Source of the DNA: Mustelus asterias | Lineage: Eukaryota | NCBI RefSeq assembly: GCF_964213995.1 | Contig: NC_135819.1 | Location: forward strand, 7,502,001 to 7,566,000 | Direction: 5' to 3' | DNA length: 64,000 nt | Part shown: positions 5,611 through 61,833 of the stretch, one piece after another | Position numbering within the stretch: position 1 is the stretch's first letter | Layout: every line of letters begins with the position of its first letter | Notes under the pieces: generated by a model | The model's database searches: none | The model's input: the letters and a program-made list of their open reading frames with translations, nothing else | What the model was told of the DNA's origin: nothing | Program-made: the position numbers and the translations under genes

Positions 5611-6366
5611 CTTCAGGGCGTACAGCGTGTCTACCCTACAATTGGCGTGCTCCTCCAGGGCCCCATCCTCTTTGCACCACCTGGTGGGCACTGTCAGTGT
5701 AACGGACCAGCAGTACCATAGAGCCCAATGGGCACTGCCGGAATGTCAGATGGGCAGTGGCAAATTGGCACTGTCCAAGAGGCAGCCCCCTGTGTTCCTG
5801 ACCTCCTAGGAGAGCCTCGATGGCCTCTGGTCCTCCTGGCGAGGCAATGACTTCTGGTCTCCTTGATGGTGACCATATGTCATCCTCGCCGGAGAGTACA
5901 TTGACCGGTGAAGCCGCAGAGGCCAGTGAGCTCAGATGACTGCGGCCGGGGCTCTTTCGTCATATTTAAATTCTCCTTTGAATAGTATTTTAATGTTGAG
6001 ATCAGTCTCATGTCTTTTTCAGGTGTGAGACTTTCTGCCTCCGGATATCCGGTTCCGGTAAGACCGCAAAAGGCGGGAAATCTCTCGTGTTCTTATCGGC
6101 TCGCTGTACCCATTGGCCGATCGGGCGAAATGGTAAGATCGTGGTCTCTGTATTTGACTTAAACACCCTGAACTCTGCTGAGTTAAATTCAGAAGCAAAC
6201 ACCCCTTTAATTCGACTATGTTCAGATTTTCTCCACAAGACTTTACCGTCAGATTACAACAAGCATCCTCTGTTGCAACAGGGGAAGAATTTCATAGACT
6301 TCTCCCTCTCTCACTCAGTACTGGAAAAACCAGTCCCATCAAAACCTTGCAGATACAACAATTGTG

Positions 6367-6687: not shown

Positions 6688-6736
6688 TACAACAATTGTG
6701 TTGTTGTATCTGCAAGTGGCTGCCAACAGCTTTCTT

Positions 6737-7420
6737 GATGTGGAGATGCCGGCGTTGGACTGGGGTAAACACAGTAAGAAGTTGAACAACACCAGGTTAA
6801 AGTCCAACAGGTTTATTTGGTAGCAAAAGCCACACAAGCTTTCGAAGCTCTAAGCCCCTTCTTCAGGTGAGTGGGAATTCTGTTCACAAACAGAGCTTAT
6901 AAAGACACAGACTCAATTTACATGAATAATGGTTGGAATGCGAATACTTACAACTAATCAAGTCTTTAAGAAACAAAACAATGGGAGTGGAGAGAGCATC
7001 AAGACAGGCTGAAAAGATGTGTATTGTCTCCAGACAAGACAGCCAGTGAAACTCTGCAGGTCCACGCAACTGTGGGAGTTACAAATAGTGTGACATGAAC
7101 CCAATATCCCGGTTGAGGCCGTCCTCGTGTGTGCGGAACTTGGCTATCAGTTTCTGCTCAGCGACTCTGCGCTGTCGTGTGTCGCGAAGGCCGCCTTGGA
7201 GAACGCTTACCCGAATATCAGAGGCCGAATGCCCGTGACCGCTGAAGTGCTCCCCAACAGGTAGAGAACAGTCTTGCCTGGTGATTGTCGAGCGGTGTTC
7301 ATTCATCCGTTGTCGCAGCGTCTGCATAGTTTCCCCAATGTACCATGCCTCGGGACATCCTTTCTTGCAGCGTATCAGGTAGACAACGTTGGCCGAGTTG
7401 CAAGAGTATGTACCGTACTA
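6737..7420 (-). mobile_element. Penelope-like element, 5'-truncated (GIY-YIG C-terminus plus pLTR/tail)
   Basis: ORF 7079..7327 matches the GIY-YIG end of ORF 24664..25791. 12-bp TSD aacagctttctt at 6725-6736 and 7421-7432. Confidence 0.85.
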
Positions 7421-7484
7421 AACAGCTTTCTTCACAGCACAGTTCAGCGCACATGCTCTTCAGGATCTCATGGCCACTCCTACT

Positions 7485-7588
7485 CAGTAAGAAGTTTAAC
7501 AACACCAGGTTAAAGTCCAACAGGTTTATTTGGTAGCAAAAGCCACACAAGCTTTCGGAGCTCTAAGCCCCTTCTTCAGGTGAGTGGG
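7485..7588 (-). mobile_element. Penelope-like pLTR fragment
   Basis: Near-identical to 6772-6875 and 24375-24477. Confidence 0.8.
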
Positions 7589-9371: not shown

Positions 9372-9490
9372 ACACCAGGTTAAAGTCCAACAGGTTTATT
9401 TGGTAGCAAATAAACCTGTTGGACTTTAACCTGGTGTTGTGAGACTTCTTACTGTGTCCACCCCAGTCCAACGCCGGCATCTCCACATCA
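9372..9490. mobile_element. 119-bp fold-back Penelope-like mini-insertion
   Basis: 31-bp perfect stem of pLTR sequence plus tail. 12-bp TSD agatatatcagg at 9360-9371 and 9491-9502. Confidence 0.85.
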
Positions 9491-9649: not shown

Positions 9650-11230
9650 AGAAGTTGATCACAGTTAATCAGCATGGATTTGTTCATGGAAGGTTGAATC
9701 TGACCAAGTTAATTGAATTTTTTTAAGAAATGTCAATGAAGGTAGAGTGCTTGATGAGGTCTACGTGGCTTTAAGCAAGGTTTTCGAAGAGTCCTCACAC
9801 GGCAGCTTGGTCAGAAAAGTAAAAGCCAATGGGATTTAAGGAAAAGTGGAAGATTGGGGTGGCATGTTGGCACTGCGGTTAGCACTGCTGCCTCACAGCG
9901 TCAGGGACCCGGGGGGGGTTCAATTCCGCCGTTGGGTCACTGTCTGTGCACATTCTCCCCATGTCTGCATGGGTTTCCTCTGGTTGCTCCAGTTTCCTCC
10001 CATAGTCCAACAATGAGTGGGTTAGGTGGATTGGCCGTGCTAAATTAACTCTAGTGCCAGGGGGATTAGCAGGGTAAATGTGTGGGGTTACGGGAATAGG
10101 GCCTGGGTGGGATTGTGGTCGGTGCCGACTCGATGGGCCGAATGGTCTCCTTCTGCACTGTAGAGATTCTATGAAAGAAAATTCTATAAAAATGTGGTCA
10201 GTGGCAGGAAGCAAAGCGTATCAGCCAGAGGGTGTTTTTGTGACAGGAAAGCAGTTTACAGTGAGATGTAAAGAACTCAGTAAAAGACACCTTGCTTCTC
10301 CATGGCATATGTCAACGTTTTAGAATTAAATATAGGGGACATGATTACAATTTTGCAGGTGATGAAAAAATTGGCTGTGCGGTCGATAATAAGGAAGAAA
10401 GCTGTAGACTGCAGGGAGAGATCAAGGGGCTGGTCAGGTGGGTAGAATTCAACCCAGAGGAGTGTGAGGGAGGATTTAGGGAGGATGCGTAAGGCCAGAG
10501 GAGACTAAGTAATAATGTTTGGATAGTTAGAAGTTAAAGGAGTGGAAAAACTTGGAGTACATGTCCACAAACACTGAAGGTAGCAGTTAGGTAGACAAGG
10601 TGACAAGAAGACATAAAGAATACTTTTCCTTTTCAGCCAAAAAATTGCTGATAAGAGCAGATATGCTACAACTGTATAAAACACTGGCTATGACTCAGTT
10701 AAAGTACTGCACACAGTCCTGATCACAGCGGTTCAAACAGGATGTGGAAACAACAGAGAGGGTGTGAAAAGACTTCCAAGCATGTCGTCCGGACAGGAGA
10801 ATTTTAACTATCAGAAAAGACCAGATAGGCTGGGATTGTTTCTTTGGAATAAAGCAGCTGTGGGAAGATTGAGGTGTGTAAAATTATGAGGGGCCTGGAT
10901 AGAGTGACTCTGAAGGACTTATTTTCTCTTAGCAGGGAGGTCAATAGGCAGGGACGCCGATTTAAAGCGATATGGAGAAGGATTAAAGAGGAATTGTGGT
11001 GGGATCTTTTCACTAAGTGGGCAGTGGTGGGGGCCTGGAACTCACTGCCTGCAGGGTGGTAAAGGCAGAAACCTCAACACATTTAAAAACCACTTGGGTA
11101 TGCTCTTGAATTGCTGAAATTGGCAGGTCTACCCAGCAGGGTCAGGCTGGATAGCTCTATTTTAATGTGAGCAGACTTGATGGGCTGAATAGCCTCATTC
11201 TGTGCTGTACATTTCCATGATTCTATGAAT
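9650..11230 (+). mobile_element. Old degenerate CR1 RT/3' region, interrupted by a SINE
   Basis: Remnants of the QHGF, FA.D.KIG and WNSLP motifs, with a ttctatg tail at ~11220. Confidence 0.7.
9858..10173 (+). mobile_element. tRNA-derived SINE with CR1-type tail (HE1-like)
   Basis: A/B-box-like head (ggttagcactgctgcctcacag...ggttcaattcc) and tail gattctatg. Same family as 12591, 27148 and 34918. Confidence 0.85.
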
Positions 11231-20244: not shown

Positions 20245-20521
20245 TGATGCGCGATTAATTCACTTGGGAGGCTAGATCGTACCCGGGAATAAAGGCTTTC
20301 ATTCGCAACAAGAATAGAGCATACTGCTTAACAATACTAACCCAGACTAAAGGGTCACTAGGAAGTGCAGTGACCTTTATACTCCTATAGGAAGGCGGAG
20401 CCAACCGGAGTGTACCACAGAACACTGCTAACAGGTGGAACACCCCAACCCTAACCCCAACAGTAACAAGAGTAACATATGTACAAGTACCCATAGTGGT
20501 AACCATCTATGGTTCACCACA
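20245..20521 (-). mobile_element. Solo LTR (tgtggtga...gcatca family)
   Basis: TG..CA ends with 5-bp TSD gtgag at 20240-20244 and 20522-20526. Lies 20 bp downstream of the Ig2 donor. Confidence 0.88.
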
Positions 20522-21075: not shown

Positions 21076-21268
21076 GCAGTGTTACTGAGACGAGGAGCCC
21101 GATTCTCCCATCCCGACACGCACATTCTTTGGTGCATCGGGATGGGAGAATCGCGTGTCGGCCATTTCGTGGGATTCGTGCACGCGTTCCCGATGCAGGC
21201 GCATCTCCCACAGCTGGAGAACAGGCGCAATCGGGACCGCACTGGAAACAGGTGGGAGGAGAGGTAAC

Positions 21269-21584
21269 TGATGCGCATCAATTGGACACGAGGCTCAAAG
21301 CTTCGGTAAAAGAAGGCTTTTATTAACTAACAATGGAACTATCAGAACTTTAACACACTATCCCAGACTGAAGGGGTCCCGTCCGAGCAGGGGGTCTTAT
21401 ACCTCTCCCAGGAGGCGGAGCCCGACTGGGATGTGCCACAACAGTAACAACCACAGGTGTATCAATCCCACCCTAGCCCAACAACAACATTAGTACAATC
21501 CCACAGTAACCTATATACATTCCCATAGTGCTGGCCAGCCCTGGCCCAGTACTATCCAGTGGGAACCAACGATGGTTCACCACA
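21269..21584 (-). mobile_element. Solo LTR (same family)
   Basis: tgatgcgc...ggttcaccaca, flanked by gtaac/gtaag (4/5 TSD). Confidence 0.85.
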
Positions 21585-24374: not shown

Positions 24375-26302
24375 GTAAGAAGTTTAACAACACCAGGTTA
24401 AAGTCCAACAGGTTTATTTGGTAGCAAAAGCCACACAAGCTTTCGGAGCTCCAAGCCCCTTCTTCAGGCGAGTGGGAATTCTGTTCACAAACAGAGCATA
24501 TAAAGACACAAACTCAATTTACATGAATAATGGTTGGAATGCGAATACTTACAACTAATCAAGTCTTTAAGAAACAAAACAACATGAGTGGAGAGAGCAT
24601 CAAGACAGGCTAAAAAGATGTGTATTGTCTCCAGACAAGACAGCCAGTGAAACTCTGTGGGGGTTACAAATAGTGGGACATGAACCCAATATCCCGGTTG
24701 AGGCGGTCCTCGTGTGTGCGGAACTTGGCTATCAGTTTCTGCTCAGCGACTCTGCGCCGTTGTGTGTCGCGAAGGCCGCCTTGGAGAACGCTTACCCGAA
24801 TATCAGGGGCCGAATGCCCGTGACCGCTGAAGTGCTCCCCAACAGGAAGAGAACAGTCTTGCCTGGTGATTGTCGAGCGGTGTTCATTCATCCGTTGTCG
24901 CAGCGTCTGCATAGTTTCCCCAATGTACCATGCCTCGGGACATCCTTTCTTGCAGCGTATCAGGTAGACAACGTTGGCCGAGTTGCAAGAGTATGTACCG
25001 TGTACCTGGTGGATGGTGTTCTCACGTGAGATGATGGCATCTGTGTCGATGATCCGGCACGTCTTGCAGAGGTTGCTGTGGCAGGGTTGTGTGGTGTCGT
25101 GGTCACTATTCTCCTGAAGGCTGGGTAGTTTGCTGCGGACAATGGTCTGTTTGAGGTTGTGCGGTTGTTTGAAGGCAAGAAGTGTGGGTGTGGGGATGGC
25201 CTTGGCGAGATGTTCGTCTTCATCAATGACATGTTGAAGGCTCCGGAGGAGATGCCGTAGCTTCTCCGCTCCGGGGAAGTACTGGACGACGAAGGGTACT
25301 CTGTCCACTGTGTCCCGTGTTTGTCTTCTGAGGAGGTCGGTGCGGTTTTTCGCTGTGGCGCGTTGGAACTGTTGATCAATGAGTCGAGCGCCATATCCTG
25401 TTCTTATGAGGGCATCTTTCAGCGTCTGGAGGTGTCTGTTGCGATCCTCCTCATCCGAGCAGATCCTGTGTATTCGGAGGGCTTGTCCGTAGGGGATGGC
25501 TTCTTTAACGTGTTTAGGGTGGAAGCTGGAGAAGTGGAGCATCGTGAGGTTATCCGTGGGCTTGCGGTACAGTGAGGTGCTGAGGTGACCGTCCTTAATG
25601 GAGATGCGTGTGTCCAAGAATGCAACCGATTCCGGAGAGTAGTCTATGGTGAGTCTGATGGTGGGATGGAACTTGTTGATGTCATCATAGAGTTGTTTCA
25701 GTGATTGTTCACCATGAGTCCAAAGGAAGAAAATGTCATCGATGTATCTAGTGTATAGCATCGGTTGAAGGTCCCGTGCTGTGAAGAGCACTTGGGGAGC
25801 ACTTCAGCGGTCACGGGCATTCGGCCTCTGATATTCGGGTAAGCGTTCTCCAAGGCGGCCTTCGCGACACACGACGGCGCAGAGTCGCTGAGCAGAAACT
25901 GATAGCCAAGTTCCGCACACACGAGGACGGCCTCAACCGGGATATTGGGTTCATGTCCCACTATTTGTAACCCCCACAGAGTTTCACTGGCTGTCTTGTC
26001 TGGAGACAATACACATCCTTTTAGCCTGTCTTGATGCTCTCTCCACTCATGTTGTTTTGTTTCTTAAAGACTTGATTAGTTGTAAGTATTCGCATTCCAA
26101 CCATTATTCATGTAAATTGAGTCTGTGTCTTTATATGCTCTGTTTGTGAGCAGAATTCCCACTCACCTGAAGAAGGGGCTTGCAGCTCCGAAAGCTTGTG
26201 TGGCTTTTGCTACCAAATAAACCTGTTGGACTTTAACCTGGTGTTGTTAAACTTCTTACTGTGTTTACCCCAGTCCAACGCCGGCATCTCCACATCATGA
26301 CT
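24375..26302 (-). mobile_element. Penelope-like element with inverted terminal pLTR
   Basis: ORF 24664..25791 has RT YIDD and GIY-YIG (NVVYLIRC..YIGET). 25790-26260 is an inverted copy of the left end. 13-bp TSD gtagtagaatatt at 24362-24374 and 26303-26315. Confidence 0.92.
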
Positions 26303-26694
26303 GTAGTAGAATATTACCAGGGCTCATAGCCTTCACAGCATCCAATGCCTTCAGCCTTTTTTGATATCACAAAAGGTTGATACAATGAGCATAAGATACT
26401 AATCTGAATATTTTATTCATTGTTTTAAATAATTCCAGTGTGTGTTCTGGATTACTAAGGAGCAGCTTGATCTAATATGATGGGCTGTGCACTCCCAGCA
26501 CCATACTGGACCGGAGGTACCTGTTTTGCAACATTGAGTTTCTCGGCCTTGGTTTCTGGACAGACTGTGGAATGTGTCCCACACTGACACGGCTGGAATT
26601 GGGAACTCACTGGTAATGGGCTTGAACTTGTGTCCCATCACTGCTGCTTCTCCAAACACCTTCGTTTTCATACTATTTCACATTTCTTTTCCAG

Positions 26695-26976
26695 ATAAAC
26701 CAGGAAACACAACCATTTCAGTAAATGACAAAACTGTGTCAGGATTTCCAGTAAATGTCAGTAAAGGTGATGAGGTTACACTGATCTGCAATTCCAATGG
26801 AAATCCCACACCTACATTAAAATGGGAAGATCCCAGTAATGGCAGCAACGTCGAGATTGCTCCTCCTGGAATTCTCCATATTCCCCACGCAACATCAGGA
26901 CATCAAGGAATTTATAAATGTACAGCTACCAATCCATATGGAATTGATGAGAAGGAAGTGGACATCAGGGTCACAG
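26695..26976 (+). CDS. ICAM/VCAM-like gene, I-set/C2 Ig exon, copy A
   Basis: Acceptor ttttccag, donor gtcagt, 282 nt, phase 1-1. Motifs GDEVTLICNSNGNPTP..W..GIYKCTATNPYG. Confidence 0.88.
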
Positions 26977-27147
26977 GTCAGTTTGTAATATTGATCAGAA
27001 TTCAAAGGATAAATAATTAATCTTTGGAGGATTGAAAAATCAGTTCAGTTCCTCCCATTAAATCCTGAATGTCCATTGGTTTGTGAAATTGTGTTATTTA
27101 TTTATTTTGTTTAAGTTTCCTGTTCCACTCCATCCTTGCTGATGAAG

Positions 27148-27493
27148 GGTAGCAAGCTGGCACAGTGGTTAGCACTGCTGCCTCACAATGCCAAGGACCT
27201 GGGCTCGATTCTGGCCTTGGGTGACTCTCCATGTGGGGTTTGCATGTTCACCCCCTGTCTGTGTGGGTTTCCTCCGGGTTCCTCAAACTGTCAAAGGATG
27301 TGCAGATTAGGTGGATTGGGCATGCTAAACTGCCCCTTTGTGTCCAAAGAAGTGTAGGTTAGGTGGACTAGCCATGGTAAATGCATGGGGTTAAGACGAT
27401 AGCGCAGAGGAAGGGACTGGCAGGGATGCTCTTTCGGAGAATCGGTGCAGACTCGATGGGCCAAATGGCCTCTTTCAGAACTGTGGGGATTCA
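27148..27493 (+). mobile_element. HE1-like tRNA SINE
   Basis: Same head and body as 12591. Sits at the junction of the exon duplication. Confidence 0.8.
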
Positions 27494-27572
27494 ATGTCCC
27501 ACACTGACACGGCTGGAATTGGGAACTCACTGGCAATGGGGTTGAACTTGTGTCCCATCACTGCTGCTTCTC

Positions 27573-28184
27573 TGTGGTGAACCATCGTTGGTTCCCACTA
27601 GATAGTACTAAGCCAGGGTCTGGCTAGTACTACAAGTATGTATATATGTTGCTGTTGGGGTTAGGGATGGGTTGTTCTACTTGTTGCTGTTGGGGTTCGG
27701 GTTGGGCTGTTACACCTTGTATTATAGTTATTGTGGTACATCCCAGTCGGGCTCCGCCTCCTGGGAGAGGTATAAAGGTCACTGCTCTGTCTGGGACCCC
27801 TCAGTCTGGGATCGTGTATATAATTACTGGCTTCGTTGTAACAGCAAATAAAATTGATGCGCGTTATCACACACGAGGCTTGAGATGCTCAGGAAATAAA
27901 GGCTTTTATTTGCTGTTACAACGAAGCTACTAATTATATGCACGATCCCAGACTGAGGGGTCCCAGACAGAGCAGTGACCTTTATACCTCTCCCAGGAGG
28001 CGGAGCCCGACTGGGATGCACCATAATAACTATAATACAAGGTGTAACAGCCCAACCCTAACCCCAACAGCAACAAGTAGAACAACCCATCCCTAACCCC
28101 AACAGCAACATATATACATACTTGTAGTACTGGCCAGACCCTGGCTCAGTACTATCTAGTGGGAACCAACGATGGTTCACCACA
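27573..28184. mobile_element. Palindromic double-LTR insertion (281-bp inverted arms, 50-nt spacer)
   Basis: A complete LTR on the minus strand (27855-28184) is joined to an inverted copy truncated after AATAAAA (27573-27853). 5-bp TSD ttctc at 27568-27572 and 28185-28189. The empty site is visible in the duplicate at ~26641-26660. Confidence 0.92.
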
Positions 28185-28228
28185 TTCTCCAAACACCTTT
28201 TTCATATTATTTCACTTTTCTTTTCCAG

Positions 28229-28510
28229 ATAAACCAGGAGACACAACCATTTCAGTAAATAACAAAACTGTGTCAGGATTTCCAGTAAATGTCAGTAAAG
28301 GTGATGAGGTTACACTGATCTGCAATTCCAATGGAAATCCCACACCGACATTAAAATGGGAAGATCCCAGTAATGGCAGCAACGTTAAGATTGCTCCTCC
28401 TGGAATTCTCCGTATTTTCCACGCAACATCAGAACATCAAGGAATTTATAAATGTACAGCTACCAATCCATATGGAATTGATGAGAAGGAAGTGGACATC
28501 AGGGTCACAG
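28229..28510 (+). CDS. ICAM/VCAM-like gene, I-set/C2 Ig exon, copy B (tandem duplicate)
   Basis: About 97% identical to 26695-26976 with the same splice sites and an open frame. Confidence 0.85.
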
Positions 28511-29111
28511 GTCAGTTTGTAATATTGATCAGAATTCAAAGGATAAATAATTAATCTTTTGAGAGAAAAGCAGAAATTGATGGAAAATCTCAGCAGGTCT
28601 GGCAGCGTCTGTGGAGAGTGAAATACAGTTAATGTATCGAATCTGTATCAGTTCTTCAGCTTTTGAGGATTGAAAAAGCATTTCAGTTCCTCCAACCCAA
28701 TCCTGAGTGTCACATTGGTTTAGGAACTTCTCTTTATTCATTGGCTGAGTTTTTACAGCCTTACCCATCCTGAAACCATCAAATCCTGCCCGAGGTCAAC
28801 GGACCTTCCCACACTCCACCCCTCGCCTGCTCCGATTCCCCTGGCAGGTGGGCCGGTAAAATTCCGGCCATTGTGTTGAAGACTCCTGTTCCACTCCATC
28901 CTTGCTGATGAAGAGGCAAATGGACAAACTCGCTGATTCTAACAATGTTGCTCTGTGACTGGCCTCTGGGACATTAGTACAAGTGGTTCAGAGTGACACT
29001 TCCTGTTCCTTTTTGTGTAGAAGCACCTTCCTCCGGCTCTGTGTTTGCCCAGACTGCCCGGGCAGTAACACCGCAAGAGAGGAGGTACAGCTGTGAACCC
29101 ACACGCTGCCA

Positions 29112-29877
29112 GTACACGGGGCAGGGTGTTGGCAGCACAGTGAGCTGTGGTACACGGGGCAGGGTGTTGACAGCTCAGTGAGCTGTGGTACATGGGGCAG
29201 GGTGTTGGCAGCACAGTGAGCTGTGGTACATGGGGCAGGGTGTTGGCAGCTCAGTGAGCTGTGGTACACGGGGCAGGGTGTTGGCAGCTCAGTGAGCTGT
29301 GGTACATGGGGCAGGATGTTGGTAACTCAGTGAGCTGTGGTACACGGGGCAGGGTGTTGGTAACTCAGTGAGCTGTGGTACATGGGGCAGGGTGTTGGTA
29401 ACTCAGTGAGCTGTGGTACATGGGGCAGGGTGTTGGTAACTCAGTGAGCTGTGGTACACGGGGCAGGGTGTTGGTAACTCAGTGAGCTGTGGTACATGGG
29501 GCAGGGTGTTGGTAACTCAGTGAGCTGTGGTACATGGGGCAGGGTGTTGGTAACTCAGTGAGCTGTGGTACACGGGGCAGGGTGTTGGTAACTCAGTGAG
29601 CTGTGGTACACGGGGCAGGGTGTTGGTAACTCAGTGAGCTGTGGTACATGGGGCAGGGTGTTGGTAACTCAGTGAGCTGTGGTACATGGGGCAGGGTGTT
29701 GGTAACTCAGTGAGCTGTGGTACATGGGGCAGGGTGTTGGTAACTCAGTGAGCTGTGGTACATGGGGCAGGGTGTTGGTAACTCAGTGAGCTGTGGTACA
29801 TGGGGCAGGGTGTTGGTAACTCAGTGAGCTGTGGTACATGGGGCAGGGTGTTGGTAACTCAGTGAGCTGTGGTACAT
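29112..29877. repeat. 38-bp minisatellite, ~20 copies (tggtacatggggcagggtgttggtaactcagtgagctg)
   Basis: Directly visible. Early copies carry gcagc and later copies gtaac. Confidence 0.95.
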
Positions 29878-32221
29878 TGTTAGTGTTAGTGAATGCTTTT
29901 CGATGAAAACTGAAAAATGATCCAGATCTCTCATAAAATCAAACTGGAGAGATAAGCAAACGGAGAGGAAGTATCAGTGAAATTTTGGAAAATGCATTCC
30001 TCTACTTGCATTCCTAAGCACTCAAGGTGTTTTACAGAAGCAGTTTTTTTTTTTGTTACTAACCTCATGGTACCAAGCCTTGGATTGGTGACAAAAGCTT
30101 AATCAAAGAAGTAGGTTTTAAAGAAACTGTGAAAGGAGATTGGGAATATTGGAAAGAGGTCATTTCCTAACCATTGCTATTCCTTTTGCTGCAAAGTAAA
30201 ATTTTTCTAGTCCTTGGTCCCAATTTTTGCAATGATTCTGGAGCCTTTTAAACATGGCAGATTGGAGTAAATTCCAAGGATTCCAAACGTCATTCCTGAT
30301 GCCCCTATTTTTGCCGGCAGAGAATAAGGAGAGGGGAGCAAGACTGCATTGTGCACCCCTCCCGACCCGGCCAGCTTTATTTCAGGGGTAAGTAAATCCT
30401 AGCCCACACTGTCAACAAATTTAATGGAGTTGGGCCAACTTATCCATGAGCACCCATGCTCCCCATGAGACATCATGGTCCTCATAAAACTCCATGATCT
30501 CTTTTAGCCTCCATACTAACTCAATGCCAATTCATGGCCCCACCCAAACCCAATGGCCTTTCATACTCTTAGCTCATGCCCTTTCCACGCCCATTGGCCC
30601 AAGATACTCTAATTCATTCACGAGCCCTGGCTCTCAGCCAAGCAGGCATAACAAAGATCAACGAACAGTACAGCACAGGAACAGGCCCTTTGGCCCACCA
30701 AGCCTGTGCCGACATGTCACACCTTTCTAAACTAAAGGCCTTTTCCCTCTACGCAGTCCGTATCCCTCTATTCGCTGCCCATTCATGTATCTGTCAAGAT
30801 GCCTGTTAAATGTTGCTAATGAGGCCATCCACTTCTACTGAAAATTCTTAAACCCTTCCTCATTAGGATTGCTGGGTGAGATGCCAGTTGCATGAATGGA
30901 ATTTTTCAGGAGGATTCTGTTTTGACATGTAGAGAAAATAGTCAACTTTGCTTGATTGACATCTTTAAGTGATTATATTAAGTTATTCTTTCTGTGATCT
31001 CTTTTGTCGATGTCTCAATATTTACTTGCAAAAGCTTATGAACCTTCTGTTATTTATACTTTAAATACCGACAGTTTTATAGCATTGTAGGAACTGCAGT
31101 ATTTTTCCAAAGAAGATTTGTGAATGGTTGTATTCTTTTAACAGGGCAGTTTTACATATGCCAGTTACAGTAGGGTCCATGGATTCTGTACAGAATGTAT
31201 ATTGGATTAATGATCCTAGAAGAGTCATAATTTGGCATGAAGGGTATGAGGGATCAAACTGGGGTGGATGGCAGGCATGAATTGTCATTGAGTTGGTATG
31301 GGAGTCTAAGGGGCCATGGGGAGTGAGGGGTTTGAAAAGTAGGGATGAATGTCTGAATAGCCTTTAATACAACAGGGGCAATATTCCAGAGAACCAATGT
31401 AGGCCTTTTAACCAGCCTTCAGCCACCTCTGCGGTCACTTCTGATCTGCTTCCAGGAGCAGTGGGCCCAATTTTATACCACAGCCCCCCCGGCCTGACAG
31501 AAAATTGCGCCATTCAGGGCTTTTCTACCAAAATCAGTCCAGCAACTTGGGAAATTTCCTGACCTGAGCTACCTGCCTGAGCAGCAAAAGTCCGGGCCCT
31601 GGTATCTTATTTCATGTGCTTTCAACCACATATCCACACCATTACTAAGATCACTATTTTCATCTGTGTAAGGTTGATGGACTGCCTGAATTAGTCTGCT
31701 GCTGAAACCCCCGCTATTCCTTATGGCTGCCATTTTGACTTCTACCCGACATAAACTTGAGGTCATCTGAAACTCACCCACACCAAATCCTGTTCACTCA
31801 TCATCAGAGGTTGTGGAGGAGAATGGATCAAATAAATAAATGAACTAGATGCATCAGAGGGACAAGGAGTGTATGAGCAACTCAGAATGGTCCACGTTGT
31901 GGGCTGGAGTTAAATAAGTTAAAGAATACAACTTGAAATACAGCCAATAGTTGAGAATATGCAGACTTGGGGATTCCATGAAATATATTTATTTATTCTT
32001 TCACGGGATGCTTGTGTCTTTGGCCCAGCCAGCACTTAATGCCCATCCCTTGAGAATGACCTTTGAGAAGGTAGTGCTGAACTGCATTTCTGAACTACTG
32101 CAGTTTACCTGGTAAATATTTTCATATTGTAAATGAGCTATGGATCTTGGAAATTATCAGGAGTTTCAGAATATTTTGCTTTGAAATCAACTGATTTGTA
32201 TTTTTATTCATGTTTTTACAG

Positions 32222-33238: not shown

Positions 33239-33523
33239 TGTGGTGAACCATTGTTGGAGTGCTGAGCCATGGTCTGGCCAGTACTATGAGTCTGTAGATA
33301 TGTTACTGTTGGGGTTAGGGTTGGGCTGTTCTACCTGTTAATATAGTCCTATGGTACACTCCAGTTGGCTCCGCCTTCCGGGAGAGGTATAAAGGTCACT
33401 GCTCTGCCTGGTGACCCTTTCGTCTGGGATTGTATATTGTATATAGTAGCTCCGTTATTGTTGGCAATAAAAGCCTTTATTTCCCGGGTACATCCAGCCT
33501 CCCGTGTGATTTATCGCGCATCA
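33239..33523 (+). mobile_element. Solo LTR (same family)
   Basis: tgtggtga...cgcgcatca with TATAAA and AATAAA. TSD cagtt at 33234-33238 and 33524-33528. Confidence 0.9.
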
Positions 33524-40509: not shown

Positions 40510-41195
40510 AGAACCATAGAACCATAGAAAATTACAGCTCAGAAACAGGCCCTTTTGGCCCTTCTTGTCTGTGCCGAACCATTTTATGCCTAGTCCCACT
40601 GACCTGCACTTAGACCATATCCCTCCACACTCCTCTCATCCATGAACCCGTCCAAGTTTTTCTTAAATGTTAAAAGTGACCCCGCATTTACCACTTTATC
40701 CGGCAGCTCATTCCACACTCCCATCACTCTCTGCGTGAAGAAGCCCCCCCTAATATTCCCTTTAAACTTTTCTCCTTTCACCCTTAACCCATGCCCTCTG
40801 GTTTTTTTTTCTCCCCTAGCCTCAGCGGAAAAAGCCTGCTTGCATTCACTCTATCTATACCCATCAAAATCTTATACACCTCTACCAAATCTCCCCTCAA
40901 TCTTCTACGCTCCAGGGAATAAAGTCCCAACCTATTCAATCTCTCTCTGTAACTCAGCTTCTCAAGTCCCGGCAACATCCTTGTGAACCTTCTCTGCACT
41001 CTTTCAATCTTATTTACATCCTTCCTGTAACTAGGTGACCAAAACTGTACACAATACTCCAAATTCGGCCTCACCAATGCCTTATATAACCTTACCATAA
41101 CACTCCAACTTTTATACTCGATACTCCGATTTATAAAGGCCAATGTACCAAAGGCACTCTTTACGACCCTATCCACCTGTGGATAGGGTCGTAAA
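40510..41195 (-). mobile_element. CR1 3' fragment, near-identical to 14570-15240
   Basis: ORFs 40590..40781 and 40784..41176 are nearly identical to the 13.6-15.2 kb copy. Confidence 0.92.
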
Positions 41196-44286: not shown

Positions 44287-44544
44287 TGTGGTGACCCACT
44301 GTAACTACATGTTATATTCCTGGACACACCCCTGCTGCGCCTGACCCGAGACTCCTCCCTTTCCACTTGATTGAGGTGTAAAGATAACGGTTCCTCCCCA
44401 CTGCCTCAGTCTGGCCCAGGCTAGCTACAAGGGTGTGTTCCAGTTCTTTGCGATTAAAAGCCTGTTGTTTTCACTCACTCGCTGGAGTCCTCGTAAATTG
44501 ATGGTGCATCAATTTTAATCGCAAAGAAAAACAAAACTCCTAGG

Positions 44545-45725
44545 ATGGAACAAATTTAGACCTGGATAAGTTAGACCTGGATCCGCAAGCTGTGGGAGTG
44601 GCTAACAGCTTCGATCACTGGCTGAAGTGCTTTGAAGCCTTCCTCGAAGCCTCCGCTGTCGTCCAGTCCGAATCAGACAAGCTGCACGTGCTCCACGCCC
44701 GGGTAAGCGATGTGGTTTATGCCACCATCCGTGACGCTGAGACGTACAGGGACGCGCTCGAGCTCCTAAAGAGCCAGTATCGTAAACAGACAAATGAAGT
44801 CTACGCCAGACACCTTCTGGCTACTCGAAGACAACGGCCGGGAGAATCGAGTGCACAGTTTCTCCGCGAACTACGGGTACTCGGCAGGGCCTGTAACTGC
44901 AAGGCTGTATCCGCCGGGCAGTACACGGAGGACTTAATCCACGATGCCTATGTTACGGGCATCGCGTCCAACTACATTTGGCAGCGACTGCTGGAGCAAG
45001 GTGGGCTGGACCTACCAAAAACAGTGGCGCTCGCTGAATCTTTAGAGGTGGCCTCCCGTAACCTCGAGGCTTACGCACCCGACCACACGGTTGCATCGTG
45101 GGCACCACGGCCGCTGCCACCCCAGTATCTAGGAGGGCCGCAGACGTACGCCACACCGCGCCTCACCAACGACTCGACTGCTGCGGCTGTTGCAGGTCCG
45201 AAGTGTTATTTTTGCGGCCTGGGGAAGCACCCCCGACAACGCTGCCCGGCGAGGGAGGTGTTCTGCTCTGGGTGCGGGAAGAAGGGCCACTGTGCTAAAG
45301 TCTGCAGGGCAAAGTCGTCCTCAAAGCCAAACAGTGCCACGTGCGACCCAAGGGAGCCGCCATTTCGGACGCCATCGACCGCGTGTGAGACAAGGGAGCC
45401 GCCATTTTGGACGCCATCGACCGCATGTGAGACAAGGGAGCCGCCATTTTGGACGCCGGCAACTGCGGTCGACCACCCTCCAGGATCCACGGTGGCAGCT
45501 GTCCAGCGAGATCAATCCCGTCCACATCAACTCGCCAGGTCCATGATGGACATCCAGGTAAACGGCCACGTGGGAAATTGTTTGTTCGACTGCGGGAGTA
45601 CGGAGAGTTTCATCCACCCCGATACGGTGAGCCGCGACGCCCTTTCCGTGTGGCCAGTTAAACAAACCATTTCCTTGGCCTCAAAGTCCCGCTCGGTGGA
45701 TGTCCTCGGGTACTGTGTGGTTCCA
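44545..45725 (+). pseudogene. gag: Gypsy gag plus protease N-terminus
   Basis: ORF 44592..45749 has zinc knuckles CYFCGLGKHPRQRC and CSGCGKKGHCAKVC and protease LFDCGSTESFI. Frameshift near the ATG at 44545. Confidence 0.88.
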
Positions 45726-48700
45726 CTGGAGCAAGCAGAGAGGGAGTGATTTGTGGCAGGAGTGCTGGTGAGAGATTTAAATATTTATTTATTTAGTCAG
45801 TTAGTGTGTTTTTTTTGCCTTTATTTTTGTAGCAGTATTTTTCTTAATTTTAAACTGAAAACCGGAAGGGGGCCGCTAAGGAGTCTGGGAAGGGTTTTTT
45901 AAGCGCACGAAGTATAAAAGGTAGGCTGCAGTATACAGCGGGCAGCGTCGGGAGCGGGCAGCGTAGTGAGCAGGGAGCAGAGTGTGAGCTATAAGGGCTT
46001 TGGCTCACAGGGCTTCGGGGGACAGGGCGAGCAGGGGGTGAGGTTTTCCTTTCATTCTTATTTACTTTTCTCTGTGTACCTTGGTATAAAGGGGCAAATA
46101 TGAGTGTGAAGCCAGTGTGTTGTTCCCAGTGTAGGATGTGGGAGGTCCTGGAGGCACCTGGCCTCCCGGACATCCACATCTGTGAGGGGTGTGTCGAGCT
46201 GCGGTTCCTGAGGGCCCGTGTTAAGGAGCTGGAACTGCAGCTCGAGGATCTTAGGCTGTTAAGGGAGAATGAGGAGGTGATAGACAAGAGCTATCATCAG
46301 GTGGTCAGACCAGGGCCATGCGTGGAGGCCAAGTGGGTGACGGCCAGGAAGGGTAAAGCTCGGGTGATTGAGAGCACCCCGGTGGATGTGCCCCTACACA
46401 ACAAGTACTCCTGCCTGAGTACTGCTGGGGGGGACAGCCCGCCTGGGGGAAGCAGCAGTGGCCGTGTCTCCGGAGTGGAGTCTGGTCCTGGAACTCAGAG
46501 GGCTAAGGAAAAGGGGAGGAAGGCAGTGTTAATCGGGGACTCGATGGTAAGGGGGTCGGACAGGCGTTTTTGCGGAGGCAGGCGGGAGTCTCGGATGGTG
46601 GTCTGCCTCCCTGGGGCCGGGATCCAGGATGTCGCTGGTCGACTCCCAGAAATCCTGAGGGGGGAGGGAGAGGAGCCAGAGGTAGCGGTACATATTGGTA
46701 CTGCTGATGTGGGAAGGAAGGGGGAAGGGGTCATGAAAAGAGAGTATAGGGAATTAGGGAGACAGCTGAGGAGGAGGAAAGCAAAGGTAGTAATCTCAGG
46801 ATTGCTGCCTGTGCCACGGGAGGGTGAGGGCAGGAATGGAGTGAGGTGGAGGATGAATGTGTGGCTGAGGGACTGGTGCAGGGGGCAGGGATTCAGGTTC
46901 CTGGACCATTGGGACCTCTTTAGGGGCAGGTGTGACCTGTACACAAAAAACGGGTGGCACTTGAATCCCAGGGGGACGAATATCCTGGCGGGAAGGTTGG
47001 CTAAGGCTACTGGGGAGAGTTTAAACTAGATAGGTTGGGGAGAGGGGATCAAGACGAGGTGACTGGGAGCGAGGAAGTTAGCTCGCAAACAGAGAAGGGT
47101 TATAGACAGTGCAAGAGTGAGGATGGACGGGGGATAGAGAAGGGGAGAGCTCAGACAAAAGGATTGAGATGTGTTTACTTTAATGCCAGGAGTATAGTGA
47201 ATAAAGGGGATGAGCTCAGAGCGTGGATCGATGCCTGGAAGTGTGATGTGGTGGCCATTACGGAGACTTGGATGTCTCAGGGACAGGACTGGATACTCCA
47301 GGTGCCGCGATTCAGATGTTTCAGGAAGGACAGGGAGGGAGGCAAGAGAGGGGGTGGAGTGGCACTGCTGATCAGGAATAGTGTCACAGCTGTAGAGAAG
47401 GTGTATGCTGTGGAGCGATTGTCTACAGAGTCTCTGTGGGTGGAAGTTCGGAGTGGGAAGGGGTCGAACACTTTGCTGGGAGTTTTCTATAGGCCGCCCA
47501 ATAGTGACAGGGAGGTGGAGGAGCAGATAGGGAAACAGATCCTGGAGAGTTGCAATAATAGCAGAGTTGTTGTGATGGGAGACTTTAGTTTCCCAAACAT
47601 AGATTGGAATATCCCTAGGGTAAGAGGATTGGATGGGGAGGAGTTTGTTAGGTGTGTTCAGGAGGGTTTCCTGACAGAGCATGTGGACAAGCCTACAAGA
47701 GGAGAGGCGGTACTTGATCTGATACTGACCAATGAGCCTGGACAGGTGTCAGATCTCTCAGTGGGAGAGCATCTTGGGGATAGCGATCATAACTCTATCT
47801 CCTTTATGCTTGCGTTGGAAAAAGAGAAGATCAGGCAAGATAGGAAAGCGTTTATATGGAGTAAGGGGAAACATGAAGACATAAGGCAGCAAATTAGAGG
47901 AGTAAATTGGAAGGAGGTATTCTCGGGGAAATCTGACTGAAGAGAGGTGGCAGTTTTTCAAGGAATGTCTGTCTAGGGTTCTACAGGACAATGTTCCGAG
48001 CAGACAGGGAGTAGTTGGTAGGTTAAAGAAACTGTGGTGCACGAAAGCTGTGCGGGACCTAGTCGAGAAAAAAAGGAAAGCATACAAAAGGTTCAGAGAG
48101 CTTGGTGAAGATAGGGATCTAGATGAGTATACGGCTTGTAGGAAGGGACTAAAGAAGGAAATTAGGAGAGCCAGAAGGGGTCACGCGAAGGCTTTGGCAA
48201 GTAGAATTAAGGAAAACCCTAAGGCGTTCTATAAATATGTGAAGAGTAAAAGGATGAGACGTGAAGGAATAGGGCCTATAAAAGGTGAAGGCGGGAAAAT
48301 CAGTACGGAACCAGTAGAAATGGCAGAGGTGCTTAATGAGTATTTTGCCTCGGTTTTCACAGAGGAGAAGGACATGGGTGGATGTACTGTGGGCTTGCGG
48401 TGGACTGAAAAGATTGAGTATGTGGAATTTAACAAAGAGGTTGTGCTGGAATCTTTAAATGGCATCAAGATAGATAAGTCGCCGGGTCCGGATGGGATGT
48501 ACCCCAGGTTACTGTGGGAGGCGAGGGAAGAGATTTCAGAGCCTCTGGCAATGATCTTTGCGTCGTCGATGGAGACGGGAAAGGTGCCAGAGGATTGGAG
48601 GATTGCGGATATGGTTCCTATTTTCAAGAAGGGAAAAAGGGATAGCCCAGGAAATTACCGACCGGTGAGTCTAACCTCAGTGGTTGGGAAGCTGATGGAG

Positions 48701-49913
48701 AAGATCATGAGGGACAAGATTTATGAGCATTTGGAGAGGTTTAGTATGCTCAAGAATACTCAGCATGGCTTTGTCAAAGGCAGATCGTGCCTTACGAGCC
48801 TGGTGGAGTTCTTCAAAAATGTGACTAAACACATTGACGAAGGGAAAGCGGTAGATGTGGTTTATATGGATTTTAGCAAGGCGTTCGATAAGGTCCCCCA
48901 TGCAAGGCTTCTAGAAAAAGTGAGAGGGCATGGGATCCAAGGGGCTGCTGCCCTGTGGATCCAGAACTGGCTTGCCCAAAGGAGGCAGAGAGTGTGTATA
49001 GATGGGTCTTTTTCTAATTGGAGGTCGGTCACCAGTGGTGTGCCCCAGGGATCTGTTCTGGGACCCTTGCTGTTTGTCATTTTCATAAATGACCTGGGTG
49101 AGAAAGTGGAGGGATGGGTTGGTAAGTTTGCCAACGACACGAAGGTTGGTTGGGTTGTGGATAGTCTGGAGGGATGTCAGAAGTTACAGAGGGACATAGA
49201 TAGGATGCAAGACTGGGCGGACAAGTGGCAGATGGACTTCAACCCAGATAAATGCGTCGTGGTCCATTTTGGCAGGTCAAATGGGATGAAGGAGTACAAT
49301 ATTAAGGGAAAGACGCTTAGTACTGTGGAGGATCACAGGAGTCCGGGGATAATGATGCAGCTATCTATATAAGACCCTCGTCAGACCCCACTTGGAGTAC
49401 TGTGCTCAGTTCTGGTCGCCTCATTACAGGAAGGATGTGGAAAAGATTGAAAGGGTGCAGAGGCGATTTACAAGGATGTTGCCTGGATTGAGTGACATGC
49501 CTTATGAGGATAGGCTGAGGGAGCTCGGTCTTTTCTCCTTGGAGAGACGTAGGATGAGAGGAGACCTGATAGAGGTATATAAGATGTTGAGAGGCATAGA
49601 TCGGGTGGTCTCTCAGAGGCTTTTTCCCAGGGTGGAAATGTCTGCTACGAGAGGACACAGGTTTAAGGTGCTGGGGGGTAGGTACAGGGGAAATGTTAGG
49701 GGTAAGTTTTTCACACAGAGGGTGGTGGGTGAGTGGAATCGGCTGCCGTCAGTGGTGGTGGAGGCAAACTCAATAGGGTATTTTAAGAAACTCCTGGATG
49801 AGTACATGGGACTTAATAGGATGGAGGGTTTATAGGTAGGCGTAAAAGGTAGGGATATGTTCGGCACAACTTGTGGGGCCGAAGGGCCTGTTTTGTGCTG
49901 TAGTTTTCTATGT
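45726..49913 (+). mobile_element. Near full-length CR1 LINE inserted in the Gypsy protease
   Basis: 5' UTR, ORF1 46100..47029, broken ORF2 (47035..47940, 48050..49372, 49392..49835), tail ttctatgtt. Possible ttcca TSD. Confidence 0.93.
46100..47029 (+). CDS. CR1 ORF1p: zinc finger, coiled coil and SGNH esterase-like domain
   Basis: CSQC..CEGC, heptad-rich segment, LIGDSMVRG, HIGT, GWHLN. Confidence 0.88.
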   Translation: MSVKPVCCSQCRMWEVLEAPGLPDIHICEGCVELRFLRARVKELELQLEDLRLLRENEEVIDKSYHQVVRPGPCVEAKWVTARKGKARVIESTPVDVPLHNKYSCLSTAGGDSPPGGSSSGRVSGVESGPGTQRAKEKGRKAVLIGDSMVRGSDRRFCGGRRESRMVVCLPGAGIQDVAGRLPEILRGEGEEPEVAVHIGTADVGRKGEGVMKREYRELGRQLRRRKAKVVISGLLPVPREGEGRNGVRWRMNVWLRDWCRGQGFRFLDHWDLFRGRCDLYTKNGWHLNPRGTNILAGRLAKATGESLN

Positions 49914-49920
49914 TTCCAAG

Positions 49921-52546
49921 ACCCTTACGGTTCGGGGGACCGAGTACGAAAATTTCAAGCTCCTGGTGCTGCCACACCTCTGCGCTCCTGTACTCCTGGG
50001 GCTCGATTTCCTGACCCATCTCAGGAGTGTCACGTTGCAGTACAACGGGCCTCTTCCCCCGCTCTCCGTCTGCAACCCACCGTTCTTAGACTGCCCACTG
50101 CGCACCACCTGTAGCCTCTCGACCCTTCAAGTCACCCCTCCCTCACTATTTGAACACCTCACCCCCGAATGTAAGCCTATTGCCACCAAGAGCAGACGGT
50201 ACAGTGCGGGGGACAGGACCTTCATTTGGTCCGAGGTCCAGCGCTCCTGAAGGAAGGGATCATTGAGGCTAGTACTAGCCCCTGGAGAGCACAAGTGGTG
50301 GTGGTCAAAACTGGGGAGAAACACCGTATGGTCATCGATTACAGTCAGACCATCAATCAGTACACGCAGCTGGACGCGTATCCCCTTCCGCGCGTATCTG
50401 ACATGGTCAATCAGATTGCGCAATACCGGGTGTTCTCCACTATTGACCTTAAATCGGCCTACCACCAGCTCCCCATCTGCCTGGAGGACTGCAAATATAC
50501 TGCTTTCGAGGCAGATGGCCGCCTCTATCACTTCCTTAGGGTCCCCTTCAGCGTCACCAATGGGGTCTCGGTTTTCCAGCGTGAAATGGACCGAATGGTG
50601 GACCAGAACGGGCTGCGGGCCACCTTCCCGTACATGGATAACGTCACCATCTGCGGCCATGATCAGCAGATCCACGACGCAAACCTCAATAAATTCCTCC
50701 GCACGGCCGCTCTCCTTAACCTGACCTACAATAAGGAGAAGTGTGTCTTCCGCACTCACCGCCTCGCCATCCTGGGGTATGTAGTGGAAAACGGGGTCAT
50801 ATGTCCCGATCCTGACCGCATGCGTCCCCTCCTGGAACTTCCCCTTCCCACCAATCTCAAAGCATTGAGGAGGTGCCTGGGCTTCTTCTCATACTACGCC
50901 CAGTGGGTCCCTACTTATGCGGATAAGGCCCGTCCGCTTATCAAATCCACGCTTTTTCCCCTGTCGGGAGAGGCCCGCTTGGCCTTCGACCGCATCAAAG
51001 CGGACATCGCGAAGGCCACAATTCACGCTGTGGATGAGTCAATCCCCTTCCAGGTGGAGAGCGATGCGTCTGACTTCGCCCTGGCCGCCACCCTTAACCA
51101 GGCGGGCAGACCCGTGGCCTTCTTCTCACGAACCCTCCAAGGCTCGGAAATTCGACACTCCTCTGTCGAGAAGGAGGCTCAGGCCATCGTTGAAGCAGTG
51201 CGACACTGGCGCCACTGCTTAGCTGGCCGACGGTTCACTTTGCTCACAACCAACGTTCGGTGGCTTTTATGTTCAACAACGCGCAGAGGGGCAAGATTAA
51301 GAACGATAAGATACTGAGGTGGAGGATTGAGCTCTCCACCTACAATTATGATATCTTATACCGGCCCGGGAAGCTCAATGAGCCTCCGGACGCCCTGTCT
51401 CGCGGAACATGTGCCAGCGCACAAGTGAACCAGCTACAGACTCTCCACAATGACCTCTGTCACCCGGGGGTCACCAGGCTCTACCATTTCATTAAGGCCC
51501 ATAACCTGCCCTATTCTGTTGAGGACGTCCGGTCTATAACCAGACACTGCCCGGTCTGCGCGGAGTGTAAGCCGCACTTCTATCGGCCAGACAGGGCACA
51601 CCTCATCAAAGCCACCCGCCCCTTTGAACGCCTCAGCATTGATTTCAAAGGGCCCCTTCCTTCTTCTGACCGCAACATCTATTTCCTCAACGTTATAGAT
51701 GAGTACTCCCGATTCCCTTTCGCCATTCCCTGCCCGGATATGACTTCAGCCAAGGTCGTCAGGGCCCTGCACGGCCTCTTCACCCTGTTCGGTTTCCCTA
51801 GCTACATCCATAGCGACCGGGGATCCTCCTTCATGAGTGATGAGCTGCGTCAGTACCTACTCTCTAAAGGCATAGCCTCGAGTAGGACTACCAGCTACAA
51901 CCCCAGGGGAAACGGACAAGTAGAGAGGGAGAATGCGACAGTCTGGAAGGCCGTTTTACTAGCGCTACGGTCTAAAGGTCTTCCAGTCACCCGCTGGCAA
52001 GAGGTCCTCCCTGATGCACTGCACTCAATTAGGTCACTCCTGTGTACGGCTACCAATGCCACCCCTCATGAGCGGATGTTTGCTTTCCCTAGGAAGTCCT
52101 CCTCGGGGATCTCACTACCGTCGTGGCTGACATACCCAGGCCCCGTTCTGCTCCGGAGGCATGTGCGGCCCCATAAGTCGGACCCCCTGGTTGAAAGGGT
52201 CCAGCTCCTCCACGCCAACCCCCAATATGCCTATGTGGCGTACCCCGATGGGCGGGAGGACACGGTCTCTATCCGGGACCTGGCACCTGCGGGTGCCCCG
52301 GAGCCCACTATGACCTCCCATCCCACATCCCTAGACCCCTCTGTTGTTCAGGTAGCACCAGGTCCGCTTACTTCTTTGTCCCCTGCATGCAGCTCGCCTG
52401 AGCCCCCAGAGTCACCACGCAGGACCCGACCAGGAGGGATGACGGCGGACTCGAGCGGTTTCACCCTGCCACCTGAAACAACACCACAACCAGTACTATG
52501 GCGGTCGCAGCGACGGATCAAACCGCCCGACAGGCTGAACCTGTGA
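49921..52546 (+). pseudogene. pol: Gypsy pol (PR end, RT, RNase H, integrase), frameshifted
   Basis: RT: SPW..MVIDY..IDLKSAYHQ..YMDN. RNase H: ESDAS..EKEA. Integrase: H..H..CPVC, SIDF..HSDRG..NGQVER. Confidence 0.92.
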
Positions 52547-53634
52547 GGGGTCGACGTCTTACTTCAGCCGTGACTCTTGTATATATTTTCGTGCCTCTGT
52601 ATATATTGTTCCACCCATCTCACCCCCGCCGGACTCTTTTTCTTAAACAGGGGGTGAATGTGGTGACCCACTGTAACTATGTATTATATGCCTGGACACA
52701 CCCCTGCTGCACCTGACCCGAGACTCCTCCCTTTCCACATGATCAAGGTATAAAGGTAACAGTTCCTCCCCTCTGCCTCAGTCTGGGCCAGGCTAGCTAC
52801 AAGGGTGTGTTCCAGTTCTTTGCGATTAAAAGCCTGTTGTTTTCACTCACTCGCTGGAGTCCTCGTCAATTGCTGGTGCATCACACTTCATCAGGTCCCG
52901 GGGATTTATCTACCTTGATGTGCTTTAAGACTTCCAGCACCTCCTTCTCTGTAATATGTACACTCCTTAAGACATCACTATTTATTTCCCCAAGTTCTCT
53001 AATATCCATGCCTTTCCTCAACAGTAAATACTGATGAGAAATATTAATTTACGATAAGGGTTTACCCCTTATCCTCAAACTATGACCCCCTAATTCTGGA
53101 CTCCCCCATCATTGGGAATATTCTTTCTGAATCTACCCTGTCTAACCCAGTTAGAATTTGACCAGTTTCTATGACTTTCCAGAGGCTGCTTTCACAGGTA
53201 TCTTAGTGGATAGAATCAGTCTGTGCAGAAGGTTGCTTGCTTCTCAGGTTCTACATGTACAGCACTTTCAAGTTGTCCAGTAGGACGGAAATCCCGGAGA
53301 TTTATCTATTATTTGCCTCATGATTTTCCCCATTACCTTTGCCACTTGTCACTTTATTCTCATTCTACACAGTGAAGACTGATACAAATTGTTTACTAAT
53401 GTCCTGATTTTCAAGGCTGTTTTTGCTATCTCCAAATAGACTGCTCCCTCTGGTGTTATTGACAATGTAACTACAGTCTTCTTCTCCCAGGCAATCCCTC
53501 GGGATTGAGGATATTTGTTTCCACACTGGGTTTTGAATAGCTGGTAAGTCCTGTGCACGGTCTGCAGACTCTGTCACATGTGAGGCAGGTGCTGCTTCAA
53601 GGATTGAGTAGATAGATAACTTTGAGGGTTACAT

Positions 53635-60623: not shown

Positions 60624-60641
60624 ATCCTGCCGACTACGCCA
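60624..60641 (-). promoter_or_regulatory. Primer-binding site for tRNA-Ser
   Basis: The minus strand reads TGGCGTAGTCGGCAGGAT, the complement of the vertebrate tRNA-Ser 3' end (ATCCTGCCGACTACGCCA), 3 nt from the LTR. Confidence 0.9.
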
Positions 60642-61556: not shown

Positions 61557-61833
61557 ACCTGGAAAGAGTAACCGGGAATGAGGAGGTACCTGGAAAGAGT
61601 AACCGGGAATGAGGAGGTACCTGGAAAGAGTAACCGGGAATGAGGAGGTACCTGGAAAGAGTAACCGGGAATGAGGAGGTACCTGGAAAGAGTAACCGGG
61701 AATGAGGAGGTACCTGGAAAGAGTAACCGGGAATGAGGAGGTACCTGGAAAGAGTAACCGGGAATGAGGAGGTACCTGGAAAGAGTAACCGGGAATGAGG
61801 AGGTACCTGGAAAGAGTAACCGGGAATGAGGAG
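61557..61833. repeat. 31-bp minisatellite, ~9 near-perfect copies (acctggaaagagtaaccgggaatgaggaggt)
   Basis: Directly visible. Confidence 0.95.

Follow-up and report, generated by a model that had tools for sequence, protein, structure and literature searches.

Reverse transcription primed by an element's own RNA has been described for the Tf1/sushi chromoviruses and for TAR Copia elements (PMC6317226, PMC4600332, PMC5341516). The Tf1 primer is the first 11 nt of the RNA and is released by RNase H (PMC7175516, PMC10085805), and approximately 50% of Tf1 cDNA retains a single-stranded copy of the PBS and approximately 20% a copy of the PPT (PMC11042837). Minus-strand strong-stop DNA of HIV-1 can also self-prime, giving products that are dead ends, are suppressed by nucleocapsid and were undetected in particles (PMC6088434).

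The locus described here lies at 27573–28184 of a 64,000-nucleotide stretch of Mustelus asterias DNA (the window, to which coordinates refer unless a relative is named) and is an inverted dimer of one LTR integrated in an intron. The geometry of its junction and of the PBS of a full-length Gypsy element in the window is like that of the Tf1/sushi elements (Tf1, Tf2, Tj1, sushi-ichi, Tcn1): the PBS is complementary to the LTR of the same element and is not of the tRNA type, and an inner stem is predicted, the modelled inner stem extension of the window LTRs resembling the Tf1 inner stem. In Tf1, however, the self-primer comes from the very start of the RNA (PMC7175516), whereas the duplex here ends at the poly(A) hexamer, approximately 50 nt past the inferred start, and the Tf1/sushi integrase carries a chromodomain (PMC10085805), whereas none was detected in the integrase frame of the window's element or among the listed relatives. 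The dimer thus appears to work like a by-product of Tf1-type self-priming but, judged by the chromodomain, does not belong to the Tf1/sushi group. Self-priming outside the chromoviruses is also predicted for TAR-lineage elements (Houba, Osr-1), but these are plant Copia elements (PMC6317226). The self-primed HIV-1 DNA is alike in its fold-back and extension by RT; it differs in that the minus strand and the TAR hairpin are involved and in being a non-integrated dead end formed in vitro (PMC6088434).

Several classes of small elements share features with the dimer. MITEs are likewise short and non-coding with long inverted repeats and a TSD, but the arms of the dimer are LTR sequence, its TSD has the length found in the Gypsy family, and nothing points to many copies or to a partner transposase. 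TRIMs and solo LTRs are also small non-coding LTR derivatives with TG..CA termini and a TSD; TRIMs, however, have direct LTRs with a PBS and a PPT (PMC6934838), whereas the LTRs of the dimer are inverted and no PPT is present, which sets it apart from that class. The Saci2/lennie clade of flatworms comprises compact, single-ORF animal Gypsy elements like those considered here, but is distinguished by its published descriptions, which give a 4-bp TSD and a tRNA-assigned PBS (PMC12471100, PMC4558846) in place of 5-bp TSDs and a self-complementary PBS. In the available parts of PMC3601003, PMC6934838 and PMC6238403, the geometry of the dimer and PBS is undescribed, and a literature search, conducted mostly at the level of titles and abstracts and outside Repbase and key older papers, turned up neither an inverted LTR dimer in integrated form nor any self-primer located at the poly(A) hexamer. 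The novelty of the integrated inverted LTR dimer is accordingly provisional.

Structure and insertion site of the dimer

The earlier note had described an integrated palindromic LTR dimer with TG..CA ends and a clean 5-bp TSD, and both its coordinates and its anatomy proved to be exact. The dimer, its host exons and the other LTRs of its family are located as follows.

27568–27572, no strand: left TSD, TTCTC
27573–27853, plus strand: truncated LTR arm (U3 and the 5′ part of R), stopping at the final A of AATAAAA (27847–27853); putative promoter with a TATA-like box at 27771–27776 and an initiator-like A at 27803
27854, minus strand: spacer base, A on this strand, between the terminal CA of the LTR and the inverted arm
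27855–28184, minus strand: complete 330-bp LTR, TG..CA, with a TATA-like box at 27986–27981, an initiator-like A at 27954 and AATAAAA at 27910–27904
27855–27903, minus strand: unpaired centre of the palindrome, 49 nt (3′ part of R and U5)
28185–28189, no strand: right TSD, TTCTC
26648–26652, no strand: empty site, with TTCTC present once, in the other intron copy of the tandem exon duplication
26695–26976, plus strand: host Ig-domain exon, copy 1, ICAM/VCAM-like gene
28229–28510, plus strand: host Ig-domain exon, copy 2, with its splice acceptor 44 nt downstream of the insertion
20245–20521, minus strand: solo LTR of the dimer's family, 70% identical, TSD GTGAG
21269–21584, minus strand: solo LTR of the dimer's family, 77% identical, TSD matching at four of five bases
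33239–33523, plus strand: solo LTR of the dimer's family, 83% identical, TSD CAGTT

The LTR-derived palindrome is 612 bp long, has terminal inverted repeats and a TSD, and is non-coding; its TG..CA termini and its 5-bp TSD, within the range of 4–6 bp, are those of Ty3/Gypsy LTR derivatives. Read on the minus strand, it opens with the full LTR (28184–27855), continues with a single A and closes with LTR positions 1–281 in reverse complement. Position 282 of the LTR is a G, unlike the A of the spacer. The arms align without gaps and are mismatched at 8 of 281 positions (2.8% divergence); when the changes were polarised with the three solo LTRs, two were derived in the full arm, five in the truncated arm, and one was ambiguous. 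The share of these differences that falls in the primer-derived part of R (three of the eight in 51 of the 281 nt; P = 0.16) is uninformative as to an excess there. No purine run of at least 9 nt was found inside or beside the dimer, and a direct repeat is also absent. Lacking both a PPT and a direct repeat, the dimer therefore cannot re-enter the LTR cycle, and it was most likely dead on arrival. The one match to a hairpin family in Rfam (mir-15; 25.9 bits, below the threshold of 57.3) was taken to be chance.

The insertion is intronic, within an ICAM/VCAM-like gene. An exon at 19882–20223 matches an ICAM-like protein of Mustelus asterias at 99% identity and proteins of Scyliorhinus torazame at 82%. 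The Ig-domain exon is tandemly duplicated (26575–27025 and 27495–28563); both copies are open, with 9 differences in 282, and the second duplicate starts directly after a SINE-like repeat (27149–27494). The two copies of the intron align across the insertion site with 13 mismatches in 447 columns (2.9%), and nothing in the flanks of the dimer is duplicated or lost relative to the paralogous intron. The empty site survives in the duplicated intron, as the earlier note had held, with colinear flanks; since the other duplicate copy has a single TTCTC, the insertion was later than the duplication. The divergence of the arms matches that of the host duplication, consistent with two arms that carried no differences when they were inserted.

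The identities of the solo LTRs given above were measured against the full arm of the dimer. The arms are 97% identical to each other, compared with 70–83% for the other LTRs of the family in the window, and both therefore derive from one template lineage. A 5-bp TSD is common to the dimer, the solo LTRs of the family and the full-length Gypsy copy. In each of the six complete LTRs of the window, a TATA-like box is followed approximately 32 nt on by an initiator-like motif and then by the hexamer motif AAAA/GCC (the slash marking where the paired segment ends), which lies 50–52 nt past the initiator-like motif and 49–52 nt before the end of the LTR. Together with the three solo LTRs, the dimer makes up a set of four insertions from a single LTR family, each of a different subfamily, in 13 kb of one gene region. 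No further dimers were found in the 64-kb window, and none were seen in eight fetched loci with related elements (described below). A route from LTR elements to MITE-like palindromes, also suggested in the earlier note, gains no support from a unit of this composition, which has neither PPT nor direct repeat.

Other repeats in the window include a 468-nt inverted repeat (98%) around a GIY-YIG frame at 24375–26259, with a second copy near 6733–7588. We take this to be a Penelope-type element with an inverted terminal repeat. Further inverted repeats with short spacers and arms of at least 14 nt are at 9372–9437, 21100–21153, 41160–41195 and 60530–60701, and long minisatellite arrays, with units of 32/34, 38, 31 and 28 nt, are at 22–5900, 29000–30000 and 61459–64000.

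The PBS of the full-length element and its relatives

The following features belong to the Gypsy element in the second half of the window.

44287–52883, plus strand: full-length Gypsy element, TSD CACTT, with 225-bp LTRs that have 15 differences between them
44444–44459, plus strand: LTR segment ending ATTAAAA that pairs with the PBS; putative end of the self-primer
44512–44528, plus strand: one A and the 16-nt self-complementary PBS
52644–52658, plus strand: polypurine tract (PPT)

The element contains gag, PR, RT, RNase H and integrase, with pol broken across several frames. The order RT–RNase H–integrase and a PPT are present in it and likewise in one of its relatives, L001. A LINE, the first ORF of which is a GDSL-esterase and which also has an RT, lies at approximately 45730–49917 in the protease region. 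The 5′ LTR ends at 44511 and is followed by one A and then by 16 nt complementary to LTR positions 158–173; the 3′ LTR holds the identical 16-nt complement to the PBS. The LTRs of the dimer and of the full-length element have termini, TATA, initiator and hexamer motifs in common, and it is through these that their kinship is suggested. They have 50–54% identity over aligned columns and no blastn match, and the full-length element is therefore a relative and not the parent of the dimer, and the PBS ascribed to that parent is inferred. No direct parent, with the LTR subfamily of the dimer and a PBS, was seen in the 64-kb window or in the eight fetched loci.

The paired LTR segment ends at AAAA/GCC both in the full-length element (ATTAAAA/GCC) and in the dimer (AATAAAA/GCC), in one aligned column block that lies 52 and 49 nt, respectively, before the end of the LTR. 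By post hoc arithmetic, a random breakpoint would land in that register approximately once in 300.

Relatives were obtained by scanning GTDB contigs with an RT alignment, which gave eight loci (L001–L008) of 45–68% identity. These are evidently animal DNA binned into marine MAGs. One animal Gypsy element in the MAG contigs is annotated as a bacterial DDE integrase, and some have satellite-rich flanks; the presence of Gypsy elements in bacterial MAG contigs is likely host contamination. The LTR/internal junction of this lineage is absent from L006, L007 and L008, which were excluded from the count, and L001, L002 and L004 are collapsed contigs with a single LTR, the ends of which were set from the PPT and the CA. 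In all five visible junctions, the CA that ends the LTR is followed by exactly 1 nt and then by 10–15 nt complementary to an LTR segment ending in ATTAAA, AATAAA or AGTAAA. Because L003 and L005 are of one family, the five represent four independent families, in addition to the two in the window. That the junction of the dimer reproduces a self-complementary PBS geometry, as had been claimed from the window alone, is thus borne out by the same register in the dimer, the full-length element and five of five relatives. L006 also contains, at its positions 2381–2890, a near-perfect palindrome of approximately 510 bp, flanked by TTA/TAA, with an incomplete second copy at 10763–11034; considered as a possible LTR dimer, it was found to be unrelated to LTRs and is ordinary and MITE-like.

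When each LTR was subjected to 2000 single-base shuffles, the observed pairing was matched 0 times in six junctions and once in 2000 in L002; for the full-length element of the window, none of the 2000 shuffles of its LTR reached 16 nt. Each PBS pairs with the LTR of its own family, the best pairing across families being 4–8 nt, so that the paired sequence has turned over between families while the register has been kept in the dimer, the full-length element and the five relatives. Such a turnover would be expected of self-priming, because the PBS would be recopied from the primer in each cycle. The PBS is complementary to its own LTR in all seven junctions, as in elements of the Tf1/sushi type, and TGG, by which alone a tRNA-type PBS was judged, occurs in the first 8 nt of none of the seven. 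A normal tRNA PBS had been named in the earlier note as evidence to the contrary; all five relatives and the element of the window have a self-complementary one.

Full-length protein matches at E ≤ 1e-100 number 727, those named being from coral, whipworm, woodlouse, damselfly and tunicate. A chromodomain (under what we take to be its accession) is absent from the Pfam lists of the 120 listed among these 727 relatives, and none is present in the integrase frame of the window's Gypsy element. A motif search of the literature and published supplements for a clade name gave 0 matches. Comparison of the sequences supports the view that the self-complementary PBS type is lineage-wide.

The self-primer duplex covers the whole poly(A) hexamer in seven of seven junctions, and in both examples from the window the RNA is predicted to fold with the primer duplex and an inner stem (z of −2.5 and −2.2). 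In the window LTRs and at the LTR ends of L003–L005, the GCC after the hexamer can pair with a GC near the end of the LTR, lengthening the primer helix past a 5-nt bulge. Because the PBS follows the 5′ LTR only, the 5′ poly(A) signal would be masked by the duplex, whereas the 3′ signal would stay accessible.

Origin of the dimer

The dimer is probably a by-product of reverse transcription in a self-priming Gypsy element that was then inserted by integrase, a statement that covers two routes together: snap-back of the plus strand and mispriming at the 3′ R. To the snap-back route, with integration via two U3 ends, we give an even chance. In the folded RNA, pairing of the PBS with R would extend as far as the last base of the poly(A) hexamer, where, by analogy with Tf1, a cut would yield the primer of the minus strand. 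The plus strand, started at the PPT, would run through U3-R-U5 and one further base into the RNA primer and so acquire a 3′ tail, between 16 and approximately 51 nt long, that is complementary to its own R. With the second strand transfer skipped, this tail would anneal to R, either on its own strand or on a sister plus strand, and be extended back across U3; the opposite strand would be made from a reused PPT primer or from a second nascent plus strand, and integrase would join the two U3 ends to give the 5-bp TSD. The predicted stability of the fold-back as DNA is −13.4 kcal/mol with a tail of PBS length and −45.5 kcal/mol with a tail that extends to the initiator. Primer length and the positions of the cut and of the start are those suggested by motifs. 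From that start site the primer would be approximately 50 nt long with only its last 13–16 nt paired; in normal copies, the unpaired part might be lost by trimming of the primer, or the true start might be closer than its motifs indicate. Precedents for parts of this route are the PBS and PPT copies kept on Tf1 cDNA (PMC11042837) and the self-priming of HIV-1 strong-stop DNA (PMC6088434). Against snap-back are the single dimer, the lack of a parent of the same subfamily, the dead-end fate and suppression of the self-primed HIV-1 products (PMC6088434) and the synthesis of the opposite strand, which would be a second unusual event.

In 3′-R mispriming, a possible but doubtful route, the PBS would pair with the 3′ LTR segment of the packaged RNA, and a cut there would give a primer that consists of PPT-U3-R. 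The plus strand would read through U5 into this long primer, the PPT of which would start the other strand, and integrase would trim the product and insert the U3-to-U3 core. The 3′ LTR has the same 16-nt complement, the plus strand of the window reads exactly as a U3-R primer, a T and a minus-strand copy of U5-R-U3, and a PPT would be supplied for both strands without a template switch. However, a long 3′ overhang past one U3 end would have to be removed by integrase, and direct evidence for this route is lacking. The product alone is the same under the two routes. Of the strong-stop snap-back put forward in the earlier note, the junction in PBS register and the single TSD around two U3 ends have held up, whereas the route itself is not separable from 3′-R priming.

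Origins that do not involve such a by-product can be compared with the same features. Long terminal inverted repeats, a TSD and the absence of coding capacity would also suit a MITE-like unit of single origin that is now amplified from chromosomal DNA by a DDE transposase or integrase; this is improbable with one dimer in 64 kb against three solo LTRs of the same family, and the PBS register fully accounts for the junction. We know of no LTR integrase that excises its element. Short inverted repeats seed palindromes, and the PBS/R inverted repeat is predicted to fold as DNA, so that the same junction would be expected if a resident full-length copy had suffered a break or a stalled fork, folded back at the PBS, had R and U3 copied and been rejoined to the far flank. 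Such a chromosomal rearrangement is quite improbable, however, as the return switch must hit exactly the last base of U3 at the far TSD, where the shared homology is only CA, and no flank was duplicated or lost.

It is very unlikely that one solo LTR inserted into another in the opposite orientation and that a deletion followed. Although solo LTRs of the family are common, with three in the window, the rest of the host LTR is missing, and the 97% identity of the arms contrasts with the 70–83% of unrelated copies. The second TSD expected in such a case was looked for and is absent: AAAAT is to the left of the full LTR and TTCTC to its right, and one TSD flanks two U3 ends. A nested pair of solo LTRs is therefore rejected. 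Long hairpins are a known class of artefact, but an assembly or library fold-back is scarcely credible here and was rejected on the eight differences between the arms, the unique flanks that are colinear with the paralogous intron and the clean TSD.

Implications for the Gypsy lineage

As a by-product of self-primed reverse transcription, the integrated U3-to-U3 dimer would be a fossil replication intermediate. If this reading holds, two U3 ends suffice for integration in the germ line, and the dimer marks the primer junction to single-base precision. Such dimers would be mislabelled by software for LTR annotation and by MITE finders alike. In maize, an inverted duplication of a transposon end, Mu killer, is transcribed from a host gene into a hairpin RNA (PMC3440606); it differs in that a DNA transposon is concerned and silencing was shown, whereas silencing by the dimer is a possibility. 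Speculatively, the 281-bp intronic hairpin could supply small-RNA silencing of the LTR family.

A broader joint reading, which we advance tentatively and with somewhat less than even confidence, is that a large chromodomain-less lineage of animal Gypsy elements (in sharks, rays, corals, molluscs, arthropods, worms and tunicates, by protein matches) primes with a capped RNA of approximately 50 nt, released from the R of the same element by a cut where the hexamer ends, that one helix also hides the 5′ poly(A) signal, and that the over-copied primer regularly leads to integrating U3-to-U3 palindromes, which would constitute an unrecognised LTR-derived fold-back class and a source of intronic hairpin RNA. 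The lineage-wide PBS carries more of the interest than the single dimer. The main point is this PBS, which indicates self-priming in a chromodomain-less Gypsy lineage, in a different register and always over the poly(A) hexamer, and the duplex that covers the hexamer offers a testable answer to the question of how short LTRs avoid termination at the 5′ poly(A) signal.
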